NCBI GenBank assembly: GCA_965178125.1
Contig: OZ237737.1
Coordinates: 1,364,001-1,428,000, forward strand
Reading direction: 5' to 3'
Source of the DNA: Bilabrum cf. latius
Taxonomy: Eukaryota
Length of the DNA stretch: 64,000 nt
In this document: positions 1-58,179 of the stretch, one piece after another
How positions within the stretch are numbered: the first letter of the stretch is position 1
How the letters are laid out: every line of letters begins with the position of its first letter
Notes under the pieces: generated by a model
What the model was told of the DNA's origin: nothing
The model's input: the letters and a program-made list of their open reading frames with translations, nothing else
Database searches by the model: none
Made by a program: the position numbers and the translations under genes

Positions 1-1944
1 CCGTTCCAGGAATGCTCCGTGCCCGGATGCAAGCTGCCTCGCTGCAATCTGCCTGGCTCAACTTACTGCGAGGGCCACCATGCCGTCCGATTCCAGGAGC
101 CCCCAACACTGGAGGACTTTTTGCGCAACGACGTGTACAGGTCAGTATTCCGTGAGTACTGCCAGTCGGCCCGCCCCGAGATGCAGGACGTGCTGGGCTT
201 CATGGAGAGAGCTAAGGACGTGTCACAGCTGCGGGCCAAGCATGTCCTCGCGGAGAGAGCGAGGGTGGTGTTCGACCAGTACGTGCGCGAAGGGGCTGAC
301 AAGCAGCTTTTCTTTTTATCCGACGTGGACCCGAGGGAGGGGTCGGGCAGGGGGGCCGCAGCGATCGGATCAAGGTCTCGGCTGGATTCGGCCAACACGG
401 TCGGCGGGGAGAGCACAGCGGACATGGCAAGGGAGGCAAGCGGCTTTTCTCTGCGGTCCGCGGGCGGCATCGAGGATTCGGTTCTCGTTCCGGGTGCAGG
501 AGGGGACTCCTGTGGAGAGGTTGCGCAGTCTGGCGTGTGCGCTCCTGCACTGCCATCGTCCCGAGTGACTGCAAGTGGAGAGGACGGCGAGGCCCCTGCG
601 GGGCTAGAGGCTCGAGCCAGAGGCGGATCTACCACAACCGCAGCAGAGGCGACACCGCCAGCAGGACCCGTTGTTGATGCCGGCGCTAGCGCACACGTTG
701 GCGCTGGGATGGGGCCCCTCTCTGTGCCGGGTCCCATGGCACCCAGCAACGGATTAACATCGGGAACTCTGCATGCTGGCTTGCAGCGATCTCGTGGCGG
801 CATGAATCTGCTGGCAGCAGCTCCCTCGTCGGAGTCGAAGGAGGACCCCACTGGCGGTGGCACCGAGTCGAAGCTGTTTCCGTCCGGTGCAGGCGCGCCT
901 CCGTCACCGACAGTGACAGATGCCCCGCCGACTAGCGAAGCCGGTGTTGCTCCTAGCAATGGGCACGCTTCCACAAGGGGTCCAGGCCAAGCGTCTCCGC
1001 CATCCGGATCACCACCCCGGATCCGCGGTGCCAGCGCCAGGGCCAGGGCTAGTGCCAGGGCTGGGGCGGGTGCCGGGGCGCTGGCTGCTGCAGCCTCGGC
1101 GGCGTCTCCGGGACGGGGGCCATCCTTGGCGCACCGGGCCGACTCCACGGCATCAACGCGGTCCAAACAAGGCGGTGGCGGTGACTTTGCCCGGTTCTGT
1201 GCCAGGCGAGATGCCGAGGAGTACGAGGCAACTCGCGTGAGGCTTGCGGGGATTTTGAGGTACCTGTACCGGGTGCTGAGCGACGATTTCGACGAGGAGG
1301 AATAGGAATAGGCGGGAGCTGCTGGAGCAGATGCTGTTCCTGCTGCCGGGGGTGATGGTGGCAGCGACGGCCCCGCCGCGAGTGGGGCTGGTGCAAGCAG
1401 TTCGTCCTTGCGCCCGCCGCCGTAGACGCGGAGGAAGGGCGCTGTCAGGTCCACAGTGTTTAAGGGCCTCGTTAGGGAGTGCAGGTGGCACCTGCACCGA
1501 GTGTTCGAGGGCGAGTTCAAGTTCAGCCAGCAGTACGCAGCGTGGGCTGACGTGAACCTCGGGCTGGAGGTGCCCGAGGTAACCGCTGGCCGCGCTGCCA
1601 TTCTGAAAGCCGCTGGGGTGTCTATCGGCGAGGCCATGGGGGTGAGGAGGGTTTCTTCGGGCGAAAATGGGGGTGCTGGACCCGCGTCTGGGTCTGGTGC
1701 AGGGACGGGTGCTGGGTCTGCGTCTGGGTCTGGGTCTTCTGCTGCAAGCACCATGTCATCGGAGGCTGGTGTTGGCGTTAGTAGGGCTGGAACCGGCATG
1801 TCACCGGTGTCCACGCCAGATTCAGAAGCGTACCAGGCTGGTTTGGAAGCGCTGGCAGCTAGCCCTGAAGACGAGAGCAGCGCCGGCGACGGGGCGTCCT
1901 CTGCGGCTGCGGGTGGCGCGGCTTCAGGTGGATTGAACATTTGA
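1..1944 (+). CDS. RGS-domain protein, 5'-truncated by the window; TAG read through at 1303, 1309 and 1423
   Basis: The frame is open from base 1. ORFs 19..1305 and 1456..1944 share a frame and are separated only by TAGs. The RGS N-half (LEDFLRNDVYRSVFREYC...LGFMER...ARVVFDQYVREGADKQL) and C-half (VFKGLVRECRWHLHRVFEGEFKFSQQY) are split by a low-complexity insert. It ends in TGA at 1942-1944. Confidence 0.7.
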
Positions 1945-2052
1945 ACTTGCACAAGACCGGCAGCTTTCGCAGTGCTTGCAGATTAGAATTCTTGCCAACA
2001 AGGGAGCAACCGCATCAATTACAAGCATCCCGGATACTTTTCTTGCCGCAGC

Positions 2053-3354
2053 TCACGAGAGAGCGTCCGGGCCACTGCCAGCCTCGTCGCTTTCCACTGG
2101 CAACGCGTCTAGCACCTCGATTCGCATGGACCACCGAAACTCTTCGCCCTGCTTCAGTAGAACCCTGCCATGACCCGTGTTGAGAGAGTCGGGCACCCCC
2201 AGCCACGGCTCCATGCAGATAAATCCTGGGCGGGGAGCAGCACCCGCATCGTCCGCAGTCGAGGCACGGCCGGCAGCTTCGAGTCCGTCGCCACTGCCAG
2301 GAGCGTCCGAGAGTGCGTCAGTGGAAGGAGGTGGCTGGCCCCACAGCACGAAGGTGTGCCACGGATCCAGCTGCGACACCTGTGCCGCTTCTGACGGTAG
2401 CAGAAGGCTGGATCCGTCCCTCTCCGAGACAGGGCCGCGCGCACCGCCGATCCACGAGGACACGCGGATGCCGGCGGGCCACTCTGCCTCTGCCTCCGCC
2501 CCCGCGTCGTCATCATCGCCTGTCTTGGCGGTTGAGACTCCCGGTTCGCCACTCCCAAAATTGAGCTCTAGCTATCGGGTACTATCAGGGGTGTGGGCAG
2601 ATTCCTTTCCGGACTGCTCGTTTGCGGAGCCGAGCACAGTGTCAAGGGCTCGCTCGTCGATGAGTTGCAGGCCCCCACCTGCAGAGGCCGCGGCCTTGCC
2701 ATCACTCGCCGTCCCTAGCTCTGGGATGCCCTTCACTTCACCTGATAGCAGGGATCCGGGTGCTAGGCACAGCATTTTGTACGCTTGGCCGCTTGGCGCA
2801 TGCAATTGCGCACCTTTCCAACGTGATGCGGGGACCGCTACGGATAGGTGGTTCCCGATCGAGAATGGCATCATGGTGGATTCGCCAGCCCGGTGGTTTG
2901 AATCGCCTGCATCTTTATTCTTCACAGTGTATTCGCAAACAATGCTGTTGCCCGACTCCAAAGCAAAACGAACCTGCAGCTCAAACTCGAATGGATACTG
3001 CATCTCCTTGCCATCTTCTACGCTACCACCCGAGCTTTCGATCGATAGATTAATATCATTTGTTGAAACTGCCTTCACTGCAAAATCAGCATCGTGGACA
3101 AACCCATGTAGTGGCATCTCCAAAGTACTTTCGCCAAGCTTCCATCGCGCGTCCTTGTGCCTGCCAACAGCAGGCCACAGCGTCATTGCTCTTCCTTGCC
3201 AGCCAGTTCCATCGTGGTTCGTTCCGAATTCACCGCCGTAAAGGATTTCATGACCCCGCCAAACGATGCTCGAAAGCTGCCCACCCTTCTTGATCACCCT
3301 GATCATGAGGCCATCCTTCTTGATCTCCAACTCCGGTCCCGCGGCACCTGCCAT
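2053..3354 (-). CDS. Aldose 1-epimerase / galactose mutarotase-like protein (LacX-like), ~433 aa; one internal TAG at 2572
   Basis: ATG at 3354. Motifs LWPAVGR, MPLHGF, YPFEF and FSIGNH lie before the TAG; the catalytic-Glu motif FICMEPW lies after it in the same frame. It ends in TGA. Confidence 0.8.
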
Positions 3355-3562
3355 CGACTTGCGACAAGCTGCAAATAGTGAGTAAGGCGTGAAGCTCTCT
3401 GAAAGAGTGCGCAAACCGATAACTTGTTTCTGCGCGATGAAGATGGATTCGACGGTTCCGGGCTGGATCGAAGTGACAACTGCAACCGCAGCTGTTGAGC
3501 CCTGCACTGTGATATGTAACAAAATTAAACGGTTCAAGGCATGAATTATAACATTTATTCGC

Positions 3563-5518
3563 TCAAGACGGAAAGTTAGCACCGTTCGTGCTGCCAGCAA
3601 CGCACCACGGGTGCTGCATTATTGTCGGGCCTTGCGCAACCACAGCCTCGACATACTCCCATTCGTTCGACACGTCGTTGAACTCTCGTCGAAATGCTTC
3701 TCCACAGGTAGGACACTCTGCTTCACCGCCAGTGGCATCAAAGTCTGCGCAAGAAACGCGGTGTGCACCCCCACCGTCGGACAGAGCACCCGGAGAGCCC
3801 GGACTGCCGGGGGTTGATGAGATGATCTGCTTTCCGGCTGTGGCGGCAGCGGGCTACAAGCCCGAGCCGGTACCCGAAGCAGAGGAAGACGAAGAAGAAG
3901 ACACCGCCGCTGCACTCGAACTGCTGCTTGATCCAGCAGCTGCCGCTGCTCCATTCGAAGCCGCTGCACCCGCGCCGGCAGCGACTGCCAAAGACGGCAC
4001 CGCGGCTGCAGCTCCCTATGCTCCAGTGCCGGTACCGGTGCCGGTGCCGCCGCTGCGGCTGCTTGCTGCGCCGTCCCAGGACCCTCTATCCCTTGCTACC
4101 TTCGCTGCACTCGTCAGCACGGTATCCCTGCGCGCCGTGTCATCGTCATCGTGCCCTACTCCTGCTCCTGCTCCTGCTGCTGCTGTTGCGCCCCAGCCCA
4201 GGGGACCGAGGAGGCACCACGCCCTGCTCCTCCCGCCCGCGCCCCCGCCCGCCCACTCGTCATCCAGCCGAGCCACCGCATGCCTCCGCCGCGCATGCGT
4301 GGCTACATCAGTTCCGGAGCGGAAAAAGCAACCGTCCGCCGCAGAAAACTCCAGGCCTTCTCCCGGAGGCCCCCTCAGGATAAGCTGCGCACAGCTCTCC
4401 TTGTCCTCCTCTACGCCCCGCCACCAGTGCAGACCCTGGGGTGCCGCGGCAGCAGCCTGCACCCCGGATGCAGACGCAGACGCATGCGCTGGAATAGGGC
4501 CAGCGGCTGGAAGCATGCTGGGGTGTCCCAGCTGCTCGGGCGCAGCGGGAACATGACTACCCTCGGCCATGCCTGCACCAGAGGCGGCTGCATCGGCCAG
4601 CATGCTGAGGACAACGGCCATGTCGCTCCCGGGCTCTGCCTGAGCCGCGGCTGCAGCTGCCGCCTGGGCCACTGCCAGCCCCGGCTGGCCGGCCCCTTGT
4701 TCCCCGGAGGCGGCGCCCAGCGCCTGCACGACTGCCTGGGACAGGAGCGGGTCCACTCGCGCCAGGGCCCGGGTCACGGCGAACACGTGCTGCTGCTGGA
4801 ATGGGGTGGAGCAAGCGGAGAGCGCAGACCGTGCCGCAGCAGCTGAAGGGCTGTCGCTGGGCCCGGCTCCCGCCTGGGAGGGAAGGGGGCCATCTGGGCC
4901 GGGCCAGTCGCCGGGATGCGTGCTGGGAAAGCCGTGTGCCTGCTCAACCCTAGCGCGTTTTGCCGGAGGCGCATCGAGCTCTGGACTGGAATGCTGGGCC
5001 CAGGGAGGCGGGTGCAACTGTGACTGAGCATCGCGGCCCGAAGCGGCGCTTGCCGGGATGGGTGCGCTAGGCACACCCGTGTGCGGTCCAGCAAGGCTGG
5101 AGTTTGGAGCGGTCGGAGCCAATGCATTCGATGCAATGCTTGCAAAATGATTCAAAAGCATGGATGTTACTGTTGGAAGTAAACTATTCGCTTGCCACAT
5201 CCGAACAACCCTCTCAATGTTGTATCTGTCCCCAGGAGAGGCCTGGTCGTACGCCATCACCAAAGTTTGACCAAGCCACCTATCGAGGCCACTCAAGAAA
5301 TGACCTCCAATATTTTTCACAATTGAGTCGATGAGATACACAATCGGAAGCCTGTGAGATGGCGGGGCCTCGCCCAGGCACTGCGCCACCGTGTATGCCG
5401 CATGGTCGGCCGAATCTGGAGCGTGAGAGAAGTACCCTGCGTGAGCCGTAAGTGGCTCAATGACTGCTCGAGCCGGGAATGTGCCCATACCACGGATCTA
5501 CGCTTGGAAGGCCTCCAT
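3563..5518 (-). CDS. PCF11: Pcf11-like pre-mRNA cleavage/polyadenylation factor (N-terminal CID, C-terminal zinc finger); TAGs at 5498, 4016 and 3854
   Basis: The CID motif is RLPIVYLIDSIVKNIGG...RVVRMW. Reading through two TAGs gives ECPTCGEAFRREFNDVSNEWEYVEAV...QHPWC, the Pcf11 C-terminal zinc-finger pattern. Start MEAFQA(TAG)IRG at 5518; TGA at 3563-3565. Confidence 0.75.
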
Positions 5519-5727
5519 AGGACGCAGAGTTTGCATGCGATTCCGTCATGGGGGATTACGGCACGGTACAAACAAAAATCCGATAAATGTCAGGCGCTCG
5601 GCTCCGCAGCAGCGCCTTGCTGATTCAGAGTGTTTCTGAGCGGTTTGCGTCCAACAGCAACCACAGCGCGCGATATATTTCTGCACAAAGCTAGCATACA
5701 CAGAAAATTCAACAGTTCCATTCGCAG
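5519..5727. promoter_or_regulatory. Putative bidirectional promoter region (Pcf11 / peroxidase fusion)
   Basis: A short, lower-GC spacer between divergent start codons; inferred from gene orientation only. Confidence 0.4.
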
Positions 5728-8700
5728 ATGCGGCTCGAAGTGCTCGCACTTGCGGCTGTGACTGTTGCGGGCGTTGGCACGCTGGCGCAGAGTGGTGTGT
5801 ATAGCTCCGTGGATGGCAGCCTTAACAACCCAATCGATGGGTTGCTCGGGAAAGAGGATACAAGATTTCTTCGGAAGCTCAACATGGCGTTCTACGACGA
5901 CAACGTTGCGTCGATAAACCCAGGCTTGCCGAATCCACGAGCTGTCTCCAATTCCTTGTTTGGGGTACCTCCGTTCAGCTACAACCAAGCAAGAGTGGCC
6001 TTTATGGCTGCGGCATGGGGTAAGAGAAAGCTTATTGCGAAGCCGGTTGCGTTTTCAGTGGAGTGTGTCCGCAGTACGTGGTTCGCTGCACCGAGTGTTC
6101 ACACCGCGTGCTCGTGCTGTTCCGTTCCCCTCCCATTTTGCAGGTCAGGTGAGCCGGCTCATATTCAAATTAATTTTTTTTGTTAATCACAAGTAGAAAA
6201 ACTGGCGTTTGTGTTGCCCGATCTTGCAGTCGTCGGCGCACATCACAGAGCTAGCCCGTTCCCAGGAGCCACCCGTCTCGCAGTTCATCGCCCATGACAT
6301 GATCAGGACAATGGGACACAACAGCAGCGATCCTACTGAAGTCATTCAAGTGCCATCACCTGCCGGGGAGACCCACTTTGATGGTCCGACGATCCCGTTC
6401 AAGCGCATGCTGTGAGAGCTTGCAAACGGATCGAATGGACGGTCGGTTCACGCCCAAGCCTATTGATGCCCGCCCTCAAAATTAAGTCATGCTGAGTTAA
6501 CATTGCAGGTATGATGCCACGACGGGAACCGGCCCGCTCAACCCGCGACAACCGATAAACAGGCAAACTTCTTTCATTGACGGAAGCGTAGTGTACGGAG
6601 CGACAACGCAAAGGCTCAGGGAGCTCCGTACATTTTACCGCGGCCAACTGATCCAGGATCCGGTAAACGGATGCCCACGGAACAGTGCTGGGGTACCCAT
6701 GGCTGGGCCTTTCGGAAACTCGCCGGACCAGCGCCTGACCGGTGACGACCGCGGCAACGTGAACCCCGGCATTCTCGCGCTGCAGTGCCTGTTCATTCTC
6801 GAGCACAACCGCCAAGCAGCGGAACTTGAAGAGCGCAACCCGTCGTGGTCCGACGAAGTGCTCTTCCAAGAAGCCCGCATCAGGGTGCGCGCCATCATCC
6901 AGTCCATCCACTTCAACGAGTACACGTCTCTGTTGCTGGGCGAGCCACTCCCGGCCTACCAGGGCTACAACCCCGGCGTCGACCCGTCCGTGGACGTTGC
7001 CTTCGCCGTGGCAGCCTACCGCTACGGCCACAGCGGCATCAATTCCGTCTACTGGTGCGTCAAACCGGACGGCTCCAACTGCCAGCAGGGTCACCTGCTG
7101 CTCCGGGACGTCTACTTCAAGCCGTCCTACCTCAACTTCGGGACCATCGGAGACATCCTTCGCGGCCTCACACTGCAGCCCGAGCAAGAAATCGATACTG
7201 TCATGGTGGACGACGTCCGCAACTGGGTCGAGGGTATCAAGCAGGACCTGGCCATGCTCGACATTATGCGGGGACGGGACGGAGGAATCGCCTCCTACTC
7301 CACTGCGAGGCAGCAGTACGGCCTATCGAGGCCGCAGCGGTTCGAAGACATCACCTCAAACCTGCGCGTGGCGGAGGCGCTGCGCGCAGCGTACTCATCT
7401 GTTGACGACGTGGATCTGTGGGTCGGAGGCCTCGCCGAGGAGGCCTCTGGGACCTCATTCGTGTCCGAGACGTTCAAGGCCGTGATCAAGGACCAGATGC
7501 TGCGATCTCGCGACGGTGACCGCTTCTACTACAAGAACCAGGAGGTTGGTGGCTTCCGCAACGGCCGCTTCGTGCGTTACCTCAGCGATGAGGAGATCGA
7601 AGAGATCGATGCGACCAAGCTCTCCGACGTCATCCGGCGGAACACGGACTTCACCAACGCTCCTTCCTCCGTGTTTAGGAAGCAGGACGAGGTGACGTTC
7701 ACCGGGCTGGAAGTCATGGCTGACGGCGAGACCACCCCTTCCACGCCAGTCGTCGTTGTGCCTGACAGCCCCACCGAGCGCGTGCTGCAGGTGGATGACC
7801 GACTCACCATGCGGTGGACGCCAGTGCAGGAGCAAGACACCGAGCTAGAGATCACGCTCGAGCTGGACGGCGAGGGATGGGTCGGTGCCGGCTTCGGCAC
7901 CAGGATGCGGGGCAGCGACGTCGTCATGCTCACCTACCAGAACGGCCGGGGCCAGGCCACCGATGCCAAAGCTACTGCATACGCGCTCCCAGAGTCTGAC
8001 CCGCAGCAGGACTGGAGAGTCACGAGCGCCTCCCAGTCAGCTGGTGTGACCACGTGGACGGTGGCCCGCGACCTGCTAACCATCGATGGCAACGACTACC
8101 AGCTGACATGGTCGGACGGTGGCAGCGTAGAGATGCTGTTCGCGTGGTCCACCACGGAGTCCACGGTGGGCTTCCACGGCAACTCGAGGACGGCACTGCG
8201 AGTACCGCTGTACGCCGAGACCAGCTCCTCCTCCTCTGGAAGCGGCGGGCAGTGCCCCACGTGCACCGTGTGCCCAAGCCCGGCCCCGACTGCCGCGGCT
8301 TCCACCGATGACGACGACGCCGCCACCAATTCCAACGATGCCTCGGGCCTCAACGGTAGCGATGGCGGCTCGTCCACGCCGGATGCCTCGGGCAACACCG
8401 TCACTCGTAACTCCCTGGTGATCCAGGAGGGCGTGCTCTCCATGGAGTGGGCACCACCGGGCGACTCCGACACTGATATTGAGATCACAATGACGCTCGA
8501 GGGAACCGGCTGGATGGCGTTCGGGGTGGGAACAGGCATGGCTAACGCTGACGTGTACATCATGTCGGTGGAGGGAGGCCAGGGTCAGCTCACCGATGCG
8601 ATCTCAACCGGATACATGGTGCCAGCCACGGACGGGCAGCAGGACGGCGAGATTGTCACAGCAACTGAGGTGGACGGAGTGACCACGTTCACGTTCCGCA

Positions 8701-11420
8701 GGGCCCTAGACACCGGTGATGGCGACGACATTGCCATCGGAACGGGCGACACGCCCCTGATTTTTGCCTGGGACACAAGGTCTGATGTAGTGGCACCCCA
8801 CGGGCCCAATAGGGTGATGGCCTCCGTGGATCTCTTTGAGAAGCCGAGTGGAAACGGAACCTCCACTGCGAGAGTTGTGGGTGGAGGAGGAAACGCATAC
8901 CGCAACGCCAGGCTAGCAGCGTATGGCTTCCATGGCATCAGCATGTTCTCGACATGGGGCGTCCTGGTCCCGATCGGAGTGTTCACGGTGCGCTTCTTCC
9001 GGCACAAGTCCTTCTACCAGCAGTTCCACCGGTGGTCCATGATGATGGCAGCGACGATTACCATTCCTGCCGCTGGTGCTGCGATTGCCGCTAGCCAAAA
9101 CTAGAACATCCTGCTGCATGCCTACTTTGGAGTCACCTTGGCGGTGTCCATCATCATCCAGGTGGTGCTGGGAGCGGCGACCCGTAACTGGCTGCGCTCG
9201 GACAAGAGGCCGCCGAACGAGTTCTTCTACGTGATGATGGCCCACAGAGTCCTCGGGTGGCTGCTGTCTGGACTGGGCATGATCAACGTGTACCTCGGCG
9301 TGTCAATGCTGCTGCCCGAAGCCAAGTACTTCATCCTGGGGTACCTCGTGCTCATCTGCGTGGCCTACGCGGTGGTCGGTGTCTACGACGAGCTTATGCG
9401 GGATTCGGTGGCAACTCCGGTGTCCATGATCAAGGGCAAGAACAACGCAACTCTAAAGAGGGAATTCATCGCGCACAGCAACCAATCGATGACCATGGAA
9501 GACGTTCGGCGGAACGTGCGCGCGGGCTGCAAGTTCGTGATCCTTGAAGGATGGGTCTTTGACGTTTCCAAGTTCGTCAAGAACCACCCGGGCGGGGCGT
9601 ACCTCATCGAGAGGTGCGTGGGCTCGGACATCCATCAGTACTTCTACGGCCGGGAGGCCTTCGACCAGCGTGTGGGCAAGCACGTGCACAGCATCAGGGC
9701 CCGGGAGCTGCTGCGCAGCCTGTGCGTCGGTGTGCTGCGAGCCGGTGCAGCTTCCAGTGGCTCTGCCGGCACGTGGGCCGACAAAACGGTGGAAGACAAC
9801 AACCAATGGGAGAACTGGACCGTCCAGAGGGCCCACATTGTCAACCCAAGAGAGAAACGCCCTGTTGTTCACCTGGCCCTGCACCGCCAGGGTGCGAACG
9901 CCACAGAGCCGCACGAGTGGAAGCCGTCCACATTCGGTCGGTACATGCTCGTCCGTATTCCCAAGCCCGACTCCAGTCGCTCTACTAGTGAGGAGTTCAA
10001 GTCGGCCCTGCGGACCAGCATCTCGGGAGATGCGCCAAGGGGTGGCGAGCACAGGTACGCCATCCGGCCGTACACCATCGTTCGTCGAGCTGGCAGGCCA
10101 GGTATGGAGCTCTATATCCGCCGGTACGAGGGCGGCGAGCTCTCACCTCTCATGCACAACCTGCGAGACGGAGATCGGCTAGATATGTCGGGCCCGCGCG
10201 GACTCGGCCTCCATCTCGATGACGACAGCTCGGGAGTGGTGGTGGGCGTGGCCCTCGGCACGTGCGCATACACCTACTATGACCTGATCCAGTACGTCAT
10301 GGCCAAGTACGAATACGAGGAGTCCAACGGTCAGAAGCTGCAGCGGAACGACAGCTACATTTCTCGCGGATCGATCCAGCGCTCGGCCTCGAAGCGAACG
10401 ATGGGTCTCGGGCCTGACGTCACCCACTTTCGGACTCCAGACGACTCCCGCCGGTCCTCCTTCCAAGACGCGAAACAACTTGGCATGGCTGGGTCGGCAA
10501 GGACTTCGAACCCAGACCCGGCAGCTCGGGACTCTATCGGTCGCAGGGGTACCGGAGCCGGCTTCGCAGCCTCGAAGCACGGGGAGGATTCGAGCAGTGG
10601 AGGGAGCGGCAGCGATCGCGGCGACGTGTCTGACAACGTCCAGGAGGGCCCACGACGCAGCACTCCTGGATAGAGGCACCGCCGGCCATCCTCGTCTGAT
10701 GATGACCTACTGGAGGCCCTCGAAGACGCAGGCCTAGATAGAGGTGAGCACAAGGCGCAAGACTCGACGCGCGTCCCTGTTCAGCTGCCTGCTCTGCGCA
10801 CTGCGTCTGCGCGAGGCGATTCAGATGCGAGCAGAACGATTGATATCGGCGGGATGCACATCACGACTGCAAAGCACATCAAGATCCGAGGCGGAAACGT
10901 CATCAAGGACGCAGCGGCACAAGGCCGCTCCAGCAGGGACATGCATGACGAGGAAGAAGAGGTCGACATGGACGCGGCAAAGCGATACCTGAAGTCGAAG
11001 AGGCTCGGCAAGAAGCCGTCTCGCGCAGTTACGCAAGCGGATGAGGAGGATACTGACCAGGAGTCGCAGCCGTCAAGCCGTACCAAGCGGAAGCACTTCA
11101 ATGACCTCAAGCTCGTCTTGATGGTCGTCTTCGGCAGCGAGGACGAGGTGCTGGAGGCAGATTGGCTGCTGCACGCCGCCGAGACGTGCCCCTACTTTGA
11201 GCTGCACATCAACATCAAGAAGAAGCGCCGGGCGGAGCACCCTCTGCATCGGTACGAGAACCTGTACACGGGGTACCTCGATGAAGAGCGGCTGGCGCTC
11301 ATCCTGCCCCCGCGCAATCTGCTGACCGTGACGCTCTGCGGAAGCAGTCAGTTCGTCAGGGGGCTGAAGGACAAGTACCTCGCAATGGGGATGCCACGTG
11401 GCCTTGTTTCGGCAACCTGA
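5728..11420 (+). CDS. Multidomain membrane redox protein: signal peptide, animal-type heme peroxidase, 2x DOMON, cytochrome b561, cytochrome b5, FNR-like FAD/NAD(P) domain; ~1,778 aa. Exons 5728-6019, 6144-6148, 6284-6411, 6509-11420; TAGs at 9102 and 10671
   Basis: Splicing gives WGQFIAHD, NPRQPINRQTSFIDGSVVYG, GDDRGN, AYRYGHS (proximal His), DIMRGRDGG and SRDGDRFYY. Both DOMONs have Met/His heme ligands. The b561 domain has four His (FHG, FHR, LHA, AHR), the b5 domain has HPGG, and the FNR domain has RPYT, GELS, GPRG and LCGS. Exon lengths sum to 5337 nt, a multiple of 3. It ends in TGA. Confidence 0.85.
6020..6143 (+). other. Spliceosomal intron 1 of the peroxidase fusion gene (124 nt)
   Basis: GTAAG donor after TGG-G; pyrimidine tract and TTTTGCAG acceptor. 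Confidence 0.8.
6144..6148 (+). other. 5-nt micro-exon (GTCAG) completing Gly and encoding Gln of WGQFIAHD
   Basis: Flanked by TTTTGCAG and GTGAG. Including it restores both the frame and the family motif exactly. Confidence 0.75.
6149..6283 (+). other. Spliceosomal intron 2 of the peroxidase fusion gene (135 nt)
   Basis: GTGAG donor, AT-rich interior, and a CTCGCAG acceptor directly before TTC ATC GCC CAT GAC (FIAHD). Confidence 0.75.
6412..6508 (+). other. Spliceosomal intron 3 of the peroxidase fusion gene (97 nt)
   Basis: GTGAG donor and TTGCAG acceptor. Splicing joins IPFKRM-L-YDATTGTGPLNPRQ in frame. Confidence 0.8.
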
Positions 11421-14984: not shown

Positions 14985-15082
14985 GGCGAGCAGAACGGTG
15001 CAGACGGCGTGGGGTCTGCTGATGATGCGCATTCGCGCAGTGCAACTTTTGACGTCGCGTCAGGTTGAAACACAACATTGCC
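14985..15082. promoter_or_regulatory. Putative bidirectional promoter region (CW-finger gene / MYST gene)
   Basis: Only 98 bp separate the divergent ATGs. Confidence 0.45.
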
Positions 15083-47700: not shown

Positions 47701-50700
47701 GTCATGATGGAGGTGCTGTCGTCTGCTGCGGGGAGAACCAACGAGAAAGCAACGGCTCTAGTATCAAAGGGGTCTGCTGCACCGTCCTCGTAGTCAGGAG
47801 CGTCGTCAGGGTTACCAGTGTCGCCACGGGCAAGCACGTCAGCCGCCACGTTCGGGGGAACATCTCGTGGTGTAACATCGTTTGTGAAGTGGACCACTTG
47901 GCTCCCTGGCTTTGGGCTGCAGCAAGGCGAGGCTGCGGAGTAGGCAGGCGAGTCTGTCACTGGCATCGACAACTCCGGCGCTTCCTCCGCGGGGCAATCA
48001 ACTATGGAACGTGTGCTTGGCCAGCGGTATCGCGTGCCGCTGTGGAACGTACCTCGAGGCATGCAGCTGCACAGCATCATTGTCCCAACACAAGACACCA
48101 GGCGCGCCACCTTCGTGGCTAGTCTGCTGTTGCGGCACAGGAAGCACGGCCTGCTTGTGGGACCCACTGGTACCGGCAAGACTGCCCTCGTTCGCGGACT
48201 TGTGGAAGGGTTGCACTCCGATCGCTTCTCTACCGCAATCCTGCAGCTGTCATCCACAACATCCGCTGCCTAGGCCCAGGAGGTGGTCGAAAGCGCACTC
48301 GTGAAGCGGCGAATCGGGGTCTACGGCCCGTCGCTGGGAAGGCACGCGGTGATCCACTGTGATGATCTCAACATGGCATCCAAGGAGGAAGGGTCTGGCG
48401 CCTAGCCGCCCCTCGAGCTCCTGAGACAGTGGCTTGATCACGGTTCCTGGTACAGCCGCGACGAGAGGGGGAGGCCGCTCCGCAGACTGCGTGACATCGT
48501 GCTGCTAGCATCTATGGCCCCATCTGGAGGCGGCCGACAGGAGATCTCGGAGAGGTTGCTGCATCACTATGCATGCTTCTCGGTGACCGAGGGCGATTCA
48601 ACCACGCTTCATCGCATCTACGGCTCGATTCTGTCTTGGTTCTTGCGGGAAGCGTCACCGGACGTGCAAGCCAGCTGCCAAAGGGTTGTTGCCACCGTGA
48701 TCGATGTATTTGAAGCAGTCAAGATGCGTCTGCGGCCGACTCCGTCTCGCACCCACTACGTCTTTTCCCCCAGAGATCTCAGCCGGGTCATTCACGGAAT
48801 CTGCTTGTCTGATCCGTCTAGTTTATCAGATCCCTTGCACTTGGTTCGGTTGGTAGGTCACGAATGCGAGCGCGTGTTCGCGGACAGGATCGTGGACGCT
48901 GCCGATTTGCAGTGGTACAACTCACTGTGGAGACAGGCGTGCAACAGGCACAACAGTGTGCCCTGGCTGCACGCGCGACAGGTCTACTACGACCACCTGC
49001 TCACGAAGCGGAGGGAAGCAATCGAAGCGGCTGAGCGCGAGCAGAAGGCTGCTGACGAGAAGGCCGGCGACGTTGATGGTGACGTGCCAGCCAAGCTGCT
49101 CAGGCTCGGGAGCGCCGAAGAGCTTCGGCTCGTAGACGCAGAGGAGTCCCACCAGGGCGTTCCGTCCGGCACCTTGCAGCAGGGCGCCAACAAGAACTCC
49201 TTGCTGTTCGCCTCGTTCGTCTCGGACCCTGCAGAAGACGATATCTTTGCTCCGGTGGCTAGTCGAGCTGCTAACGCTGGCATGGCGCCGGCAGGGGGCG
49301 CTGACAAGGAGCAGCCGCGGCAGAGCGGCACCTACGGCGGGTCATCCGTGCAGGGTGGTGCCTCTGGTGAGATGCCGGGTCCTGCCCCTGCACAGGGCGT
49401 GGGTGCATCCAGTGGCAGGCCGAGGTATATCCAGTGCCGGTCCGACGCCCATCTCCACGCTGTTCTGGCCCGCAAGCAGCGTGGGTACAATAGAAAGCAC
49501 ACTAGCCACAAGCTCGAAATGGTGTTGTTTGATGCAGCAAGGCAACACGTGTGCCGAGTTGCCCGTGTACTTGCACAGCCAAGGGGACACTGTTTGCTCT
49601 GCGGGCTGGACGGGAGCGGGAGGCGAAGCGTAACTCGACTCGCGGCTTACGCTCAGAACTGTGACCTGATCGAGCCGGATGTCTCAAATGCGTCTCATTA
49701 CTCGCTGCAGGACTGGCGTGAGGACCTCAAGAACGCATTGCTGCAGTCTGGTCTCCACGGGAAGCATGTGGCCATGGCTGTGCTCGAATCACAGATTGCC
49801 ACTGCAGGGAATCAGCTGCTCGATGATGTCTCGCTGCTGCTGAACGGCGGCCAGCTCCGATCCAACGATGTGCTTGACCAGGAGACCCAGAGGCGCATTC
49901 AAGAGGAGCTTGGGCCTGCGGCACGGCAGGCGCAGCTCGACAAGCGGATTGCTGCGCAGCAGGTATAGGCTGATGCTGCCTCTCGCAGGCCAGGCAGCGT
50001 GCAGCATGGCAGCCAGCGCGGAGGCGCGAGCACGTCACAGCTTTGGACCGCGGCGAGTGGGGCGGGATCCAGTGCAGCAAGAGGATCTGCAACCAGGCTT
50101 CACTCCAGCACTGCTGCCGACTCTGGGGATGGGGGAGAGGGGGAGTCCGGTACCGACGTGATCAGTTTTTTCTTCGAGCGAGTGCGGAAGAATTTCCACA
50201 TGGTGCTGATCTTTTCTCCTGCCAGTCCTCATTTCCGCGCCAGACTGAGGCAGTTTCCCTCCCTAGTCGATTGCACGACCATCGATTGGTTCCACGAGTG
50301 GCCGCAAGAAGCGCTGCAGGCAGTTGGGCAGTACGTCCTTGTGAAGGCATCCAAGGCAACACAGCGTGACCACAACGCGAGGCGCGGTAGCTTGGCAGGA
50401 TCGCTTGACAGGCGATCGAGCAAGGGTTCTTTGGACGGAGCTTCGGTGGTGTCGCTGCAATCCACGGTGGTGCCTGAAAGCAGCCCATTCCACCAACCGT
50501 CGTCTCTCCTGGTGCAGCTAGCCAGCGATCGAACTGCTCTCCAGCGGGCAGTTGAAGTGTGCGTGCGAATGCACACCAGAGCCGAGGTGTCTTCGCACGA
50601 GCTGCTGAGAGAGCGGGGCCGCCACAATTATATCACGCCCGCCAACTACTTGCAGCTGCTCAAGCTATACGCAAACATTTTGCAGAAGCAGTCGACCCGC

Positions 50701-53700
50701 ACAGACGCGAAGCGGCGTCGGTATGCGCATGGAGTGCAGCGCATCAGGGACGCGGAGATCGTCGTGTCTAAGCTGAACGAAGAGCTGCGCGTGCTGACAC
50801 CGCAGCTGGAACAAGCACGCGTGGACACGGAAAAGGTACTCAGGGACGTCGAGGAGCAGCGGCTTGCAGCAGATGCCAAGCGGGTTTCGATTGAAAAGGA
50901 GCAGCAGGAGTGCGCGGAGTCCATGATGAAGGCTCAAGAGCTCAAGGATGAGTGCATGGCTGAGCTGGAGGCAGCCATGCCTCGACTTGAGAACTCACGC
51001 AAGGCACTGCGGACGCTGACCAACGCCGACATCTCGGTGATCAAGAGCATGAAGGAGCCGCCGAAGGGCGTGCGGCTCACCATGGCCGCAGTGTGCATTA
51101 TGCTGAAGAAGAAACCCGAGACTATTCATGTGCGAGGCAGCATAGGGGGCAGATCAGAAGCTGTCAAAGACTACTGGCGTCCAGCCAAGGCATAGCTGCT
51201 CAACGACACCCGGTTCCTCAAGACTCTGCTGAAGTTCAAGCATGAACGACTGACAGATAAGATCCTCGAGAAGCTTGAGCCATTCCTTGAATCCGAAGAA
51301 TTCACCCCTGCCGTCGTGTCAAAGTCTTCTTCCGCTGCGGCAGGCCTCTGCAGCTGGGTGCGAGCAACGGTTGAGTTTCACAACGTTGCGCTGCAGGTTG
51401 CTCCCAAACAGGAGAGGGTCGAAGCAGCATCTGAGGCGCTATAGACAGCGCAGGAGGACCTCAAGCTTAAGGAGAAGGAGCTAGAAGAGGCAAATGAGCT
51501 GCTGGAGCGCCTGCAGAATGATCTAGCTTCAAACGAGCACCGCCGCAAGACGTTGCAGGCACAGCACGATCGCTGCAAGCTACGGATGGAGAGAGCCAAG
51601 GTCCTGATGGGTGGCTTGCAGGAAGAGAAAGAAAGGTGGTCGGATTAGTCGCTTGCTCTGCAGAGCAGCAGAGAGCGACTCGCAGGTGATGCGCTCCTGG
51701 CGGCCGGCACGACTTGCTACTTGGGCGCATTCCCTTGGAAGATGAGAAACGAGCTGCTGTGGCACTGGTGCGAGGCGTGCGATGTGTCTGCAGTCGAGAG
51801 GACAAGGTTTGAAGCCGACATGTTGCGAGCTTTAGAGAGCGAAGCAATGAGCCAGCGTAGAAGGCATGCTGGCGGAACAGGCCAGCCGTCTCGGGCTGCA
51901 TCTGGGGCCGGCGACGACTCTAATCTTGGTGAGCCGAAGCCACCCACGCATGCACCGGCGTCAACGTCCAGCGTAGGATCTAGGCCGGGTCGGCGACTTC
52001 GCAAGATGGGCTCCTCCAGGCGAGGCCTTGAGGTGGAGACTGGGGCTGGAGAGCTGGACAGGAGTGACACCGCTGACTCGTCAGAGGCCAGTTCCGCTGC
52101 ACGCAGCCAGGCAGCTGCCTTTGCCCAGGGTGTCGGATCTACGATGATGACCCCGGCCCTTGCAATCCAATAGCCTGGCGGTGGCGGCTCGCACAGAGGC
52201 CAGAGCCAGTACAAGAAGGCTGGTGGTTCGGATGGCCCGTTCTTCGGGTCCTCAGACCCGAAAGCACGGACTGCTGCCGAGATTTTCTTGGCGGCTCGAC
52301 AACACGCCGAGCGGTCAGAGTGGAGCCTCTCTCCGTTCAAGCTAGACAGGGTGATCGGAGACGAGTCAGATATTCGACAGTGGCGTTCGAACGGTCTACC
52401 GGCAGACGAACTCTCACTCCAGAATGCACTCATACTGTAGGCAGCCATGCCTGTGGTTTGGCCGCTCCTCATCGACCCCGAGGGGCAGGCGTCTGCATGG
52501 GTTATTAAGTAGTTCTCCAAGGAATGGGCGGCCAAGCGGGCCGCAGAGCAGCCTGGTGGCAGGGATCAGAGCGGATCTGCGGCCGCTGGATCTGCAGCCA
52601 CTTCGGGAGTCATTGGTATGCTTCGCTAGACGAAGTCGGGCGGTGGATCTGAAGCCGGGAGCAAGCGCAGACAACACACGAGTCTTGCGGCTCAGCGAAA
52701 GAAGGTGCTGCAGCAGCGGCACCAGGGATCAAGCGGTGGTGGCGCGCTGCCAACGGATGGTGTTGTGGTTGTGAGACCCACAGATGCTAGGCTGGATTCG
52801 CAGCTTGAGTCAGCCGTGCAGCTGGGTTAGACCTTAATCCTTGACGGTGTAGCAGGTGATACGGTGGAACCTTGGGGCCTCATCGAGCCGTTGCTGAGCC
52901 GTCGTACGTTCCGCACGGGCGTTGGAGCTGGCTTTGAAGCGGTGAAGATCGGCCAACGCACGGTGCAGTGGGGCGAAGGGTTCCGCCTAGTGCTCGTGAC
53001 TCGAGAGGCGAACCCGCACTACTCCCCAGAGGTGCGCGTCCGCGTCAACTTGGTCGATTGTGCGAGCACCTTTAACGGCCTGACGCACCAGATGCTTTCG
53101 CTTGTTGTTAGGAACCAGCAGCCAGAGCTTGAGAACCAGATGTCTAGCGCACTTCGGGACATTGCGGAGAGCAGTGCAGCGCTGCGACAGAGCGAGGATG
53201 AAATCCTCAGGTTGCTTGCGGCTCGGGGAGATGAAGACAACGATGAGTACGGCAGTGGCCACGGGGCCTCTGAGTCAGAGGTTGTCGAAGGTATGACCAC
53301 GCAGCTATCAGCAGCCGACGACGATGCTGTTGGGCTAGAAGATGACGATGCAGCAGGTGGACGGCAGCACACTGTCGGCATCTCATCTAGTGCGCAGGGA
53401 GGACGAGCATTGCAGTCGCCTCCTGCAGCCCGTTCAAAGCAAGGCATGGACGCCGAAGTAACCGACAGCCTTGCGGGTGGAGATACTATCCTGGACGACG
53501 AGGAGCTTGTTGGTGCTCTACAGAGCGGTCGCGATGCAGCGGCAGCTGCTCAGGTCAAGCTGCAGTAGGCAGAACGCGTGAGATCACGCATGGTCCAAAG
53601 CAGAGCCGAGTATCATGCAGTGGCCCTGAGAGCGGCTAGCCTCTACTTTGCTGTGGCCGATCTTAATCGCGTGGCGCATATGTATAGCTATAGCATGGAG

Positions 53701-56700
53701 TGGTTCCGGGGCCTGGTGCTCGCAGCGCTCAAGGCCGACCCTGTCCCGAAGTCCTCTCCGAAGATCGACAAGCTTCGCAGCCTGTGTCAGAGCATCACGT
53801 TTGCGGTGTTCAAAGGTGTCACTGTCGGGCTTCTGAATGCCCACCGGTTCCCGTTCCTGCTTCTTCTCATGCTGCGGATCCTGCAGTCTGAAGGGCATGC
53901 AACCGAGAAAGAGGTGCTGTTCCTGTTGTCTGGCCAGGTGGGATCCTCGGGTGCGCAGCCACCGAACCCAGCAAGAGAAGACGTTGACTGGGCAGACGAC
54001 GATGGCGTATCTAGTGGTGACTTTGGGGAGGAAGAGGATGAAGACGACGGGATCGGCATCACGGCTTCAGCATCGAGAGCTGACATGGAGGTTCCCGGCA
54101 ATGCTGGCGGGACCGGTGCTCTGTGGATGAGCGATCAGAGCTGGGGGAACCTGGTTGGACTTGGCAACATCAAGTCCATGGCTGGCATACACCGTTTCCT
54201 AGCTTTCGGCGAGAAGTCAGATAAGGAGCCTCCGGTGGCCGCGATGCGAGGCACATCCCTCGGTGCCAGCTAGGTTCGTGCTAGCAGGATGAATTCCACC
54301 GGTCCAATGCGGCAATCAAGTCGATTGGGGGCTCAAAGTGGTGGAGGTGCCGCGAGTCGTAGCGATACAGAGAATCCTGATCAGGAGCAGCGGCTGTAGG
54401 CGCTGAAGCAGCTGAGGCGGGTGATGCTTGCTGACGATCCCGCGGCGCAGCTGCAGATGCTCTTGTCTGGCAGGGCTAGCAACACGGACGAGGTGGATGA
54501 AGATGGAGATGCAATCGGTGCCCTGCCGAACGTGTTTCCTGGAGCAACCGGCCGGAAGAAACTCGGTGCTGCTGGAAGTGAGGCCGGCAGCACGCCTGCA
54601 TCACAGGTAGGCCATGGAGGACGTTCGAGACGAGCCAGCGCGAACAAAGGGCTGTGGGCTCCAGGTGGAGCCAGCGGCTCGCGCACCCCGGGGCGTGGGT
54701 CCATGTTCGGTGGCTCTGTGTCCGGCCGTAGCTCTGTAAGAGGGGGTGGCGCTGCCGCCAGCGTCACCGGCTCTGGTGGCCGCAGCGTAGCTGGAAGCGC
54801 TGCTGCTGGTGGTCCCGGCGCGATCGACCTACGCGCAGAGAGACTTGCCAGCATGCCCACGTCGCTCGGTGGTCAGCGTCAAGTGATTGGACCGCTGTCA
54901 ACTCTGCAAGCCTCCAAGGCAAGGGTGATCGCGGCAGAGTCACGAGGCGACGCCTACAAGAAGCAGATGGCGGCGCAGCTGCAGCAGCCGCCGTCGCGAG
55001 AGAGCACTGGGTCTGGGTCTGCCCAGGCTGACGGTGGCACCGAGCTAATGTCTCCTACGCCCATGAGCCGCATGGACACTCAGCCCATTACACCGCAGAT
55101 CGCGACTGCCCGAGTCCCGATGCCCCCAGCGAAGCGCTGGTCCAAGCTGACTGCCTTCCAACACCTCATGTTGCTTCGCAGCTTGCGGCCCGACAAGTTC
55201 ATCAGCGCCGCGAGGGAGTTTGTAGCGTGCCACTTGGGGCCCGAATACCTGGAGCCCGTGCGGCTGGACATGAACGAGGCGTACCAGGACACTTCGTGTG
55301 AGACGCCGCTGGTCTTCCTTCTGGCTCCTGGCTCGGATCCGGTGCTGGAAATCCTCAACCTGGCGGACGCCCAGTCCATGAGGAGACGAACGCACATTGT
55401 GTCGCTGGGCAAGGGTCAGGGTCCCGCTGCTTCGCTCAGGATCCAGCTGGCAATGGCCAAGGGCGACTGGGTGGTGCTGCAGAACTGTCACCTGGCTCGA
55501 TCGTGGCTGCACCAGCTGGATCGAATCGTGGCGGGTCTCTCCACCGACACGGCAGCACGAGACTTCCGGCTGTTTTTGACCTCTGCGCCCTCTCCGACCT
55601 TCCCGCTCTCGGTGTTGCGAAGGTCGATCAAGGTGGTCAACGAGCCGGCGGGAGGGGTGGCAGCGTCCGTCTCACGAGCCCTCGCCCAGCTCGACTCGGA
55701 ATGGTTCGAGCAGGCAGCCCAGCCGCGCTCCTTCCAGCGACTACTTCTCTCGCTCTGCTTCTTCCATGCGGCGCTCCTTGGCAGAAGGAGGTACGGGCCG
55801 CTCGGTTTCGCAGTCACGTATGACTTCAGCGACTCTGACCTCGGCATTTCGATTGCTCAGCTCCGGCACCTTCTCGACGACGCCGCATCACCCCAGGCCC
55901 TCAAGGCGGTCAGAGAGGCAAAATAGAGAGCGTCTGCGATGAAAGCATCACAGGGCGCAGCCTCGCAGTCCATGTCGATCAGCAGCGCGAGAAAGATGAC
56001 CAAGTCAGAGGCTGAAGCCAAGGCGAAGGCCGAGAGGGAGCTCCTGGATAGCCAGCCAGAGTCCGTCCCGTTTGAGGCTCTGCGATACCTGATCGGACAC
56101 TGCTACTACGGCGGCAGGGTAACGGACAATCGTGATCGGCGCACGCTGTTGGCCATGCTGCGAGTCTGCATGCACGACGGCATCGTGCATAGCACATCCG
56201 AAGAGGACGAGCACGCGGCGTAGGAGCTGAGGGAGGGCTCTGGCCCCACCAGCCTGCGACTGTGCGAGAGTGGTGCGTACAGGCTGCCCGTGCTGCCCTC
56301 TGACCACCGGACCCTGCACGGCTACCGACGGTACGTGGAGATGGTGATGCCCAACGAAGACGAGCCGGAGACGTTCGGGCTTCACGCGAACGCTGCAGCT
56401 GCCCAGGCCACCGCAGAGGCCCACGACGTGCTCCACACTCTGCTGAGCCTCGAGCACCAGGACGCATCGCAGGCAGCGTCTGCGGCAGCGGCGGCCGCGG
56501 CTACCGGTCAGGCTTCTCAAGCAGAGCATGCAACTGCGGGCGACGATGGCGGGCCTACCGGAATGGCTGGTATCGGTGGCAGCGCGCATCAGCTGGGCGG
56601 TGGCGCCGGTGGCGGAGACGGCAACTCGCCAATGGCCATCTCGGACCCGAGCCGCGGTGGTGCCGACTATGAGGTCCGGCGCCTCGTGCAGCTGATCAAG

Positions 56701-58179
56701 GCCCAGCGCAACACGCACCAGATGCCGCTCGTCAGGGAGGTCAGAGCCATCCTGTTTAGGCTGCCCGTGGACCCTTGCTTCGACTTGGAGCTGACCGAAG
56801 CGAGGTATCCGAGGTCTTACGACAAGTCGCTCAACGTCGTGCTCCTGCAAGAAATCGCAAGGTACAATGGGCTTGTCTACGAAGTGCGCAAGCAGCTTGT
56901 AGGGCTGTTGGAAGCGCTCGCGGGTCAGGTCGTAATGAGCGCAGAGCTGGAGAGCGTGGCAGCAGCCTTGAGCCAGGGTGCGGTGCCACAGGGCTGGCGC
57001 GATGTCTGTTACGTGTTTGCGAGCCGGACTCCGCTCGCAGCGTGGATTGACGACCTTGCAGCCCGCCTGCGCTTCTTCCGACGGTGGATCCGGTGGGGCC
57101 CGCCGCCTAGCTTCTGGCTTGGGTCCTTCTTCTCGCCGCACAGCTTCTTGACGGCCGTGACGCAGAAGCACTCCAGGCGGATCGGGGTGCCCATTGATGA
57201 GCTGCAGCTTAGCTGCGCCGTTCTCACGGCGGAGCCCCCGTCGATGCTTGTGGAGCTAGACGATGCTGCGGTGCGCCGGCAGCGCGAAGCCGCAGCTGCT
57301 GCCCGACAGGCTGCCACTGAGGCTCGCGGCTTGGACGCGACCAGCGAGACCGTGGTGGGAGTCGATGCAGCAGGCGAGGACGCGGGGCTGGGGCTTACTT
57401 CTCTCGAGGTCGAGCCTGGAAGCGAGCTGGATGCGGCCTCCCGGAAGCCTTCGGCGCGGCGTCATGGAGGCTGGCTTCCTGAAGGTGAGTTGGAGCCGCC
57501 AACCGCCGGCGTGTACGTGCACGGGCTGGTGCTAGAGGGCGCGGCCTGGGACAGGGTGGAGCGGGTGCTTTGCGAGCAGCGGCCGGGTCAGCTGTACGAC
57601 CAGATGCCGATGCTGTGGCTGCGCCCAAGGGTGAGTGCATCCCTCCAGCGTGCGGTGAACGGGAGACTGAGCCGCGTCAGCGGCAGTGGTGCCGGCGAGG
57701 GATTCCGTCCGTCATCAAACGAGAGCCACCGCAGCGCAGGTGCAGGTGCTGGTGCACAAGACCCTGAGAGCAGGCTCGAGGGAGACGGAGATGCTTCTGC
57801 CGTGGGTCCCGGGGGCGTGTCTGCCAAGGACGCTCTCCTGGGTCCTGACGATCCGGGCTTTATGTGTCCCGTGTACTTGACCACGGACCGGCGCGGCGCG
57901 CTGAGCACGACGGGCCATTCCACGAATTTCCTGGCAGAGGTTACGCTGCCTGCGACCCCGCTCGTTCCGGGGGAGTTCGGGTTCGAGCAGCTGGCCCCTA
58001 GGGCGCCGCGCAGCAGCGGGGGAGCCGGTGCGCGCGGGTCTGTTCGCGCAGGTGGGGCGCATCTTCGCGGGATCGTGCCGGATCTGAGCGAGTCCGAGAG
58101 GACGAAGCTTGGGCTGCAGGCCGCGGCCGAGCACTGGCAGAGAAGAGGGGCGGCCTTGGTGTGCCATCGAGCCACTTGA
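32779..58179 (+). CDS. Axonemal dynein heavy chain, single-headed inner-arm type, unusually large (~8,466 aa), apparently intronless; ~54 internal TAGs
   Basis: About 30 track ORFs lie in one frame, and the gaps I read contain only TAG. It has a DNAH1-like tail (LPLEQFDD...PWEW; WVRRLNLRF...YIQSLP), linker LEKKRLAFPRFFFL, AAA1 GPAGTGKT (44188), CFDEFNRI, AAA2 GEAMSGKT (45427), AAA3 GPTGTGKT (48160), AAA4 GLDGSGRR (49603), stalk/MTBD, WVVLQNCHLA, YGGRVTD and STTGHSTNF...HWQRRGAALVC. It ends TGA TGA. Confidence 0.9.

Follow-up and report, generated by a model that had tools for sequence, protein, structure and literature searches.

UAG is almost certainly translated, and very probably as glutamine, in the genes of a 64,000-nucleotide stretch of DNA filed as Bilabrum cf. 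latius (contig OZ237737.1 of assembly GCA_965178125.1, positions 1,364,001 to 1,428,000; this whole stretch is called the window hereafter, and coordinates are counted from its first letter), in which UAA is not a sense codon and every complete gene ends in UGA. The best explanation, to which we give a probability of roughly 0.6, is that the window comes from an intron-poor stramenopile nucleus of 61% G+C, with Cafeteria as its nearest named relative, in which UAG encodes glutamine, UGA is the stop codon and UAA, never used as sense, is likely a seldom-used stop. A first-pass annotation of the same DNA had proposed that UAG was reassigned without UAA, and this proposal is borne out, as TAG lies at conserved Gln columns, is paired with CAG in a relative and is kept in spliced transcripts, use of TAA as sense is excluded and no gene ends in TAG. 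Its codon count was right as well: it had reported no in-frame TAA in about 20,000 codons with CAA freely used, and the refined gene models contain 0 TAA in 20,780 in-frame codons, with 186 CAA counted beside 617 CAG.

Reading frames and the exclusion of TAA as a sense codon

The window has a base composition of 57-64% G+C and is nearly all coding. When TAG, TAA and TGA all terminate, its longest open reading frame (ORF) has 868 codons, whereas ORFs of 8,469, 3,649, 1,902, 1,640 and 1,186 codons are obtained with TAA and TGA as the sole stops; the large ORFs (8,469, 3,649 and 1,902 codons) are thus open because TAG is read through. The longest is a single ORF on the plus strand (32773..58179) for an inner-arm axonemal dynein heavy chain of 8,468 aa, with 54 TAG and a terminal TGA at 58177, and Pfam finds complete dynein, MYST, peroxidase and M8 domains inside TAG-bearing ORFs. 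We delimited 11 gene models stop-to-stop by TAA and TGA, the first of them open at its 5' end and the last at its 3' end, and refined the peroxidase and MYST models with RNA-supported introns. Together the models contain 129 in-frame TAG and 10 TGA, the latter exclusively terminal. Read in their other two frames, the same genes (in a version of 20,595 codons) contain 56 and 61 TAA, 141 and 148 TAG, and 339 and 479 TGA; TAA and TGA, but not TAG, have thus been removed from the coding frame.

Given the CAA:CAG ratio of 186:617, 38-39 in-frame TAA would be expected, and the observed zero (P ~2e-17) sets an upper 95% bound of 1.4 TAA per 10,000 codons. It weighs against this count that TAA served as an ORF boundary, so that its absence is partly by construction. 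The zero is nevertheless not circular, because the 8,469-codon ORF stays the same with TGA as the single stop, and because of the Pfam domains, the homologue C-termini and the transcript contigs described below. An ordinary NCBI table 6 code, in which UAA and UAG both encode glutamine and TAA is scarce through high G+C, could draw on the preference for G over A at the third positions of two-fold boxes, where A/(A+G) is 0.12-0.31, but even so it predicts 38-39 TAA beside the 129 TAG and none is seen. We regard it as very improbable for the organism, and within the window the count excludes it: TAA is not a sense codon. The use of TAG itself varies from gene to gene. Its share of Gln-type codons is 0-3% in the two genes richest in third-position G+C, the peroxidase fusion gene and a gene for a retinol-saturase/phytoene-desaturase-like FAD oxidoreductase (30111..32519, minus strand; 0 TAG; TGA 30111-30113), and 15-32% in several poorer ones, with no significant trend of TAG share with third-position G+C per gene (rho = -0.43, P = 0.19, n = 11).

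Contigs of sequencing runs X1, X5, X6 and X7 were placed on window positions 1-20000. No listed run is recorded as RNA, and X5 is flagged 'probably DNA'; only contigs that contain splices are safely mRNA-derived. X5-X7 do include mRNA-derived contigs, because spliced joints are present, at 6412-6508 (GT..AG), at 15434-15519 (GT..AG after a shift of +4) and from 6021 to 6281 ('AA..CG'). Run X1, which is DNA, matches the window without joints and with 0 differing letters over 1-7590 and 7616-20000. Splice-containing contigs cover four TAG, all unchanged. Two of them (9102 and 10671) lie in the gene for a haem peroxidase-DOMON-cytochrome b5-FAD-binding fusion protein (5728..11420, plus strand; 1,778 aa; TGA at 11418), and the other two (15281 and 15344) are the TAG codons of a MYST histone acetyltransferase gene (15083..16677, plus strand; 502 aa; TGA at 16675), both situated in exon 1, ahead of its GT..AG intron. 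In all, 21 TAG lie under contigs of X5-X7, with 0 other letters at these sites. All three TAG (1303, 1309 and 1423) of the first gene, a 5'-open ORF with a weak RGS-like match (1..1944, plus strand; TGA at 1942), are covered unchanged by contigs of X5 and X6. Since TAG is unchanged in the contigs, RNA editing and assembly error are excluded at those sites.

These data also bear on the notion that the TAGs are untranslated, be it that the genes are pseudogenes, that the assembly is wrong or that UAG is edited to CAG in the mRNA. That notion is hardly credible, with nothing seen in its favour: 129 TAG stand beside 0 TAA and 0 internal TGA, the DNA run X1 reproduces the letters of the window, the transcript contigs retain TAG, and a relative of about 60% identity keeps its frames open through mostly different TAGs (see below). 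An ORF antisense to the first gene (63-1982, 639 codons, 0 TAG, ending in TAA) was considered and rejected as a gene, with a coding score of 0.005 versus 0.173 for the gene opposite.

Glutamine as the probable amino acid encoded by UAG

For the identity of the amino acid, the dynein was aligned with 120 homologues, the best listed of 626 matches at E<=1e-20 (1,439 scored candidates), and TAG columns were kept where the local context was ungapped and held at least 5 identities within +/-8 residues. Seven of the 54 dynein TAG codons fall in such columns with at least 50 aligned homologues. Glutamine occupies all 120 homologues at the first of them, 101 of 114 at the second and 86 of 116 at the third, and at the fourth it is found in 39 of 117 beside 78 with histidine; the seventh (116 aligned) is variable, with T, A, V or S. 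Over these seven columns, and with empirical profiles taken from the dynein gene's own codons, the log-likelihood is -16.2 for Q, -19.7 for E and -20.5 for H. A BLOSUM62 sum over nine columns likewise places Q (13.9) ahead of E (7.3), with Leu at -12.

Several columns speak against glutamine. The fifth dynein column is glutamate in all 120 homologues and the sixth is leucine in 45 of 56, and in the alpha/beta-hydrolase-like gene next to the leishmanolysin gene (28003..29976, plus strand; no Pfam match at 1e-3, 332 library matches at E<=1e-10; 7 TAG; TGA at 29974) the column 'GHLx' has Q in just 5 of 13 homologues. Other TAG positions are uninformative, such as TAG 158 of the same gene, in a variable G/D/N column, and the exon-1 pair of the MYST gene, in variable or gapped columns (K 11 and Q 7 of 49; 35 of 49 gaps). 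The glutamate and leucine columns could suggest a different amino acid, glutamate being next best and second in both scoring schemes, and leucine being the known meaning of UAG in some ciliates and in exLh, a rhizarian. A control within the dynein gene bears directly on the glutamate column: glutamate is the majority residue at 13 of 75 true Q codons, but glutamine is the majority residue at only 4 of 95 true E codons. The single Glu column is accounted for by this frequent occurrence of true Q codons in E-majority columns, and with Q ahead of E by 3.5 log-likelihood units over the seven columns and leucine far down on the BLOSUM sum, a residue other than glutamine appears improbable.

A relative of the window organism carries TAG in orthologous genes and provides a second comparison. 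In the library search with the hydrolase-like gene, the four top matches are short (116-179 aa, 63-90% identity). The 90%-identical fragment, P0243, has an internal Met as its first residue and breaks off exactly one residue short of a window TAG, and representatives of the other three clusters of these matches share single contigs, of 4,416 and 5,424 bp, a pattern that we attribute to standard-code gene calling, which breaks a TAG-bearing gene. The 4,416-bp contig (L001) is a JGI environmental contig of 55.7% G+C. It holds an orthologue of the hydrolase-like gene (59% identity over 523 aligned residues, 3 in-frame TAG, TGA end) and the C-terminal part of an orthologue (62% identity over 478 residues, 2 in-frame TAG, TGA end) of the gene that precedes it in the window, a 3,648-codon ORF that encodes a leishmanolysin (M8) domain and, at the C-terminus, a multi-pass membrane region (16950..27896, plus strand; 27 TAG; TGA at 27894). 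At about 60% identity, the frames of L001 stay open through their own, mostly different TAGs.

Of the 11 pairs in which a TAG of one sequence faces a sense codon of the other, three have CAG opposite TAG, and CAC, GAC, TCG, TCA, GGT, CCG, CGC and ACC occur once each; two window TAGs in the C-terminal region of the leishmanolysin gene are among those paired with CAG. That 8 of the 11 partners are not Gln codons is a further point against glutamine. The three pairs in the best-conserved contexts (10-12 of 13 residues locally identical) are TAG/CAG at 12/13 and at 10/13 and TAG/GAC at 10/13, and no TAG is paired with GAG, GAA or a Leu codon, which again argues against glutamate and leucine. Weighing both comparisons, we consider glutamine the best reading of TAG and a highly probable one, as judged from the few (seven) informative alignment columns.

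The relatives also give the change some age. Because they carry in-frame TAG, the reassignment predates the split of at least two, probably three, sequence-distinct lineages. For the TAG-free oxidoreductase gene, full-length relatives exist at 96% and 75% identity, and a scan of genome contigs with the 96% relative gave no match. The leishmanolysin and hydrolase-like genes are adjacent both in the window and on L001 (where the leishmanolysin part occupies 2934-4415), in tandem in the former and convergent in the latter, and L001 holds no homologues of window genes beyond these two. Eleven further loci from the metagenome scan (L002-L012) were set aside as unrelated hydrolases, bacterial- or fungal-looking, with 0-1 TAG.

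Gene ends and the status of UAA

All ten complete genes end in TGA, and neither TAG nor TAA is a terminal codon in any of them (0/10 each). The ten ends listed in the first-pass annotation (1942, 2053, 3563, 11418, 11502, 16675, 27894, 29974, 30111 and 58177) were verified, reading TCA on the plus strand for the minus-strand genes at 2053, 3563/11502 and 30111. Homologues anchor the ends of the dynein and oxidoreductase genes, and transcript contigs those of the peroxidase fusion, zf-CW and MYST genes. In 70 of 78 short tail matches the dynein and its homologue end in register, and the dynein TGA at 58177 is directly followed by a second in-frame TGA; the oxidoreductase TGA lies at the same residue as the end of the 75%-identical relative. 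A spliced contig of the peroxidase fusion gene (5649-11471), which gives a 1,778-aa ORF with a signal-peptide-like start, stops 51 nt past the TGA at 11418 with no later in-frame stop, and a contig of run X5 that covers the zf-CW gene (11502..15059, minus strand; 8 TAG; TGA 11502-11504) reaches 11465, 37 nt beyond the TGA of that gene.

Genes that truly end in TAG, which the first-pass annotation had set against its own claim, are absent from the ten window ends. Their absence bears on a context-dependent UAG, sense internally and a terminator near the 3' end, as in Condylostoma or Blastocrithidia. A trace of such behaviour could be seen in the last 96 codons, which are free of TAG in all nine complete TAG-bearing genes (the first eight models and the dynein gene): when Gln-type codons are permuted, a minimum TAG-to-end distance this large has P = 0.007, with a 96-codon threshold set by the data, and the two L001 genes are also without TAG close to their 3' ends. 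At fixed lengths, however, the depletion is not significant: over the last 100 codons TAG accounts for 1 of 28 Gln-type codons, versus 106 of 805 elsewhere (Fisher P = 0.11), and over the last 50 for 0 of 17 (P = 0.09). As the TGA ends of the dynein and oxidoreductase genes are, moreover, in register with homologues, we judge a terminator role of UAG near 3' ends to be improbable.

Whether UAA is used at all is the more interesting question. TGA is generally favoured as a stop in G+C-rich genomes, for which a TAA share of 10-20% among stops is plausible. The probability of finding no TAA among ten ends is 0.35, 0.11, 0.028 and 0.004 at TAA shares of 10, 20, 30 and 42%, the last being TAA/(TAA+TGA) in the non-coding DNA of the window on both strands (49:67), and 0/10 fits a TAA share of up to ~26% (95% confidence). 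The caution of the first-pass annotation, that ten genes are too few to settle the status of UAA, is therefore well founded, with P = 0.35 at a 10% share. A UAA that is still functional as a rare stop, and not unassigned, is what we somewhat favour by analogy, because Iotanema and exLh (see below) keep UAA as a stop and because G+C-rich genomes favour TGA. Several points count against this part of our reading: UAA as the remaining stop is assumed from precedent, with none observed; TAA is used at 0 of the 10 window ends and 0 of the 2 orthologous L001 ends, the latter adding little because they are orthologous to window ends; and at the non-coding share of 42% the absence of TAA from ten ends has P = 0.004.

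These same points make up the case for a UAA that is effectively unassigned, read by no tRNA and not used as a terminator, so that UGA would be the sole working stop. Such a state may arise, for example, if eRF1 ceases to recognise both UAR codons, as in UGA-only ciliates, and only a CUA-anticodon tRNA appears. TAA is common in the non-coding DNA (49 versus 67 TGA), so that composition is no bar to its use, and the tandem TGA-TGA at the dynein end fits the same view. Yet ten ends are few (P 0.35-0.11 at the plausible TAA shares of 10-20%), Iotanema and exLh retain the UAA stop in the account of Panek et al. (PMC5304391), and in-frame TAA lies 3 and 4 codons past the TGA of the zf-CW and oxidoreductase genes, as would suit a back-up stop, not above chance. 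On balance we think an unassigned UAA unlikely. Doubtful, by a little more, is the fuller proposal that a Cafeteria-related clade, made up of the window organism, its 90-96% relatives and one ~60-75% relative also present in an environmental metagenome, represents the first nuclear stop reassignment seen in Stramenopiles, with UAG as glutamine, UAA neither sense nor terminator and UGA as the sole stop. If UAA were unassigned in a eukaryotic nucleus, the code would be an intermediate between the standard code and table 6, and a UAA wholly unused could be a stepping stone to the common code in which UAR encodes glutamine.

With UAA as a rare stop, the mechanism could be the following. Cytoplasmic translation would read UAG as glutamine and terminate at UGA. 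A tRNA-Gln with anticodon CUA, one base from CUG, would pair with UAG and not with UAA, and eRF1, its recognition of UAG lost or weakened, would still recognise UGA and probably UAA. New TAG codons would arise mainly from CAG by C-to-T change. Both the tRNA-Gln(CUA) and the altered eRF1, in which a change would be expected at the N-domain motifs that read the third stop base (GTS, NIKS and YxCxxxF), are suggested by precedent: the first-pass annotation had put forward these two parts, and Panek et al. (PMC5304391) reasoned in the same way for Iotanema and exLh. On the other side, ARAGORN and Rfam find no tRNA genes in the window or on L001, Rfam finds no other families within the window, and the eRF1 gene is not within the window.

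Gene content, taxonomic placement and known codes

The remaining models comprise a gene for an aldose 1-epimerase-like protein (2053..3618, minus strand; a stop-to-stop ORF whose start is not fixed; 1 TAG; TGA 2053-2055), one for a CID-domain protein (3563..5545, minus strand; a stop-to-stop ORF; 3 TAG; TGA 3563-3565) and a 3'-open ORF of 1,902 codons (58294..63999, plus strand; 22 TAG) without a Pfam match, the coding score of which (0.071) is positive and the lowest among the 11 models. The peroxidase fusion protein has an unusual architecture, with a signal peptide, an animal haem peroxidase domain, two DOMON domains, a membrane region, a cytochrome b5 domain and a FAD-binding oxidoreductase domain. 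Its gene has exons at 5728-6019, 6144-6148, 6284-6411 and 6509-11420. The apparent 'AA..CG' intron at 6021/6281 was rejected as an alignment artefact; there are in truth two GT-AG introns, 6020-6143 (124 nt) and 6149-6283 (135 nt), which flank the 5-nt microexon GTCAG (6144-6148). This microexon supplies part of the conserved WGQF motif, and WGQFIAHD spans it. The gene is convergent with the zf-CW gene, from which it is separated by 81 nt (11421-11501), and the 3' ends of the two appear to overlap by 7 nt because the contigs end at 11471 and 11465, in so far as contigs, which cannot fix true RNA ends, can indicate this. The dynein is about twice the usual length, with some 2,900 N-terminal residues without Pfam matches and many Ala/Gly/Ser-rich insertions separating its motor domains; its two best database matches are likewise oversized (6,872 and 6,760 aa).

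Placement of the organism comes from the MYST protein, whose top named match is Cafeteria roenbergensis (61% identity, 535 bits), followed among named matches by an oomycete at 442 bits. The other named matches among the 120 listed are stramenopiles (oomycetes, labyrinthulomycetes, ochrophytes and Incisomonas), except for one partial Symbiodinium entry. In a maximum-likelihood tree of 27 MYST sequences, built from the named and the nearest unnamed matches with the remaining listed matches left out, and without an outgroup, the window groups with Cafeteria and one further sequence (support 95/90) on a short internal branch. Against this placement stand its dependence on one gene and the dynein matches, which carry no taxonomic signal and whose top named entries are not stramenopiles. 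Chytrids among those entries prompted us to consider an affinity with the aphelid Amoeboaphelidium. We rejected it, as the MYST matches and tree give stramenopiles; the code of Amoeboaphelidium is, in the passages of the two papers that cite it (PMC5304391, PMC11687900), a UAR and not a UAG-only reassignment. From these protein comparisons we believe with good confidence that the organism is a stramenopile, and are inclined to see it as related to bicosoecids.

When the stretch 26500-33500 was compared with sequencing runs, four contained all and three more 72-95% of its words, and these runs, with 0.72-1.00 of the words, stand under several organism labels. The organism of the window may be carried in cultures or samples labelled otherwise, or be filed under several names.

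The decoupling of UAG from UAA is itself not new and has been documented since 2017; until then nuclear codes that separate the two were thought impossible, and the lineages known to have one are still few. Wherever such a code has evolved independently, it offers a natural test of the way in which eRF1 discriminates G from A at the third stop position and in which a CUA anticodon becomes acceptable to glutaminyl-tRNA synthetase. A stramenopile with high G+C, few introns and both DNA and transcript data would extend the cases beyond ciliates, metamonads and rhizarians, and relatives at graded distances would allow the change to be placed in time by comparison with neighbours that keep the standard code, such as Cafeteria. 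A search of the full-text literature, subscription journals and supplements lying outside that scope, gave no stramenopile in which a nuclear reassignment of UAG is reported, a result that is provisional. There is also a practical cost, in that standard-code gene callers shatter the genes of this clade, and the hydrolase is already present in public protein sets as fragments of 116-179 aa.

UAG as glutamine with UAA and UGA as stops is the pattern that was formerly NCBI table 15. The first demonstration that UAG and UAA can be decoupled is described in passages of Panek et al. 2017 (PMC5304391), which report two cases: exLh, a rhizarian of the Sainouroidea, with UAG as leucine and UAA and UGA as stops, and Iotanema spirale (Fornicata), with UAG as glutamine and the same two stops. 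For these organisms the authors deduce a CUA-anticodon tRNA and report eRF1 changes, T32G (in the GTS motif) in Iotanema and an L69A-like change in exLh (PMC5304391). McGowan et al. 2024 (PMC11687900) describe, in the part that concerns us, two origins, among phyllopharyngean ciliates, of UAG as glutamine with UAA not reassigned, and they also cite Protocruzia tuzeti.

The window resembles Iotanema most closely: in both, UAG stands in frame where glutamine is conserved, UAA is absent from the frame and UAG is never terminal, and both would need a tRNA-Gln(CUA) and an altered eRF1. The two differ in their gene ends, which are UGA in 10 of 10 cases in the window, whereas 104 of 119 complete Iotanema transcripts end in UAA and 15 in UGA (PMC5304391), and as Iotanema belongs to the Metamonada and the window organism probably to the Stramenopiles, the origins would be independent. 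Phyllopharyngeans and Protocruzia tuzeti share the same codon assignment, which has arisen repeatedly and independently, but they are ciliates, a group of frequent code changes (PMC11687900). With exLh the window shares the decoupling of UAG from UAA and a CUA-anticodon tRNA, here putative; unlike in exLh, where UAG is leucine (PMC5304391), leucine scores far below glutamine in the window.

Codes with a wider reassignment are further removed. Table 6, used by many ciliates, Dasycladales, hexamitin diplomonads and oxymonads and, as cited in both papers (PMC5304391, PMC11687900), by Amoeboaphelidium, also has UAG as glutamine and UGA as the terminator, but it reads UAA as glutamine too, in contrast to the 0 TAA of the window versus ~39 expected. 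Condylostoma, Parduczia and Blastocrithidia, with their context-dependent stop/sense codes, likewise use a standard stop abundantly as sense, and the TAG-poor 3' ends are a weak hint of further likeness, yet none of the window genes terminates at the reassigned codon, and UGA serves as a stop alone. What sets the window apart from the known UAG-only cases is its lineage, its base composition and the fact that all ten gene ends are UGA.

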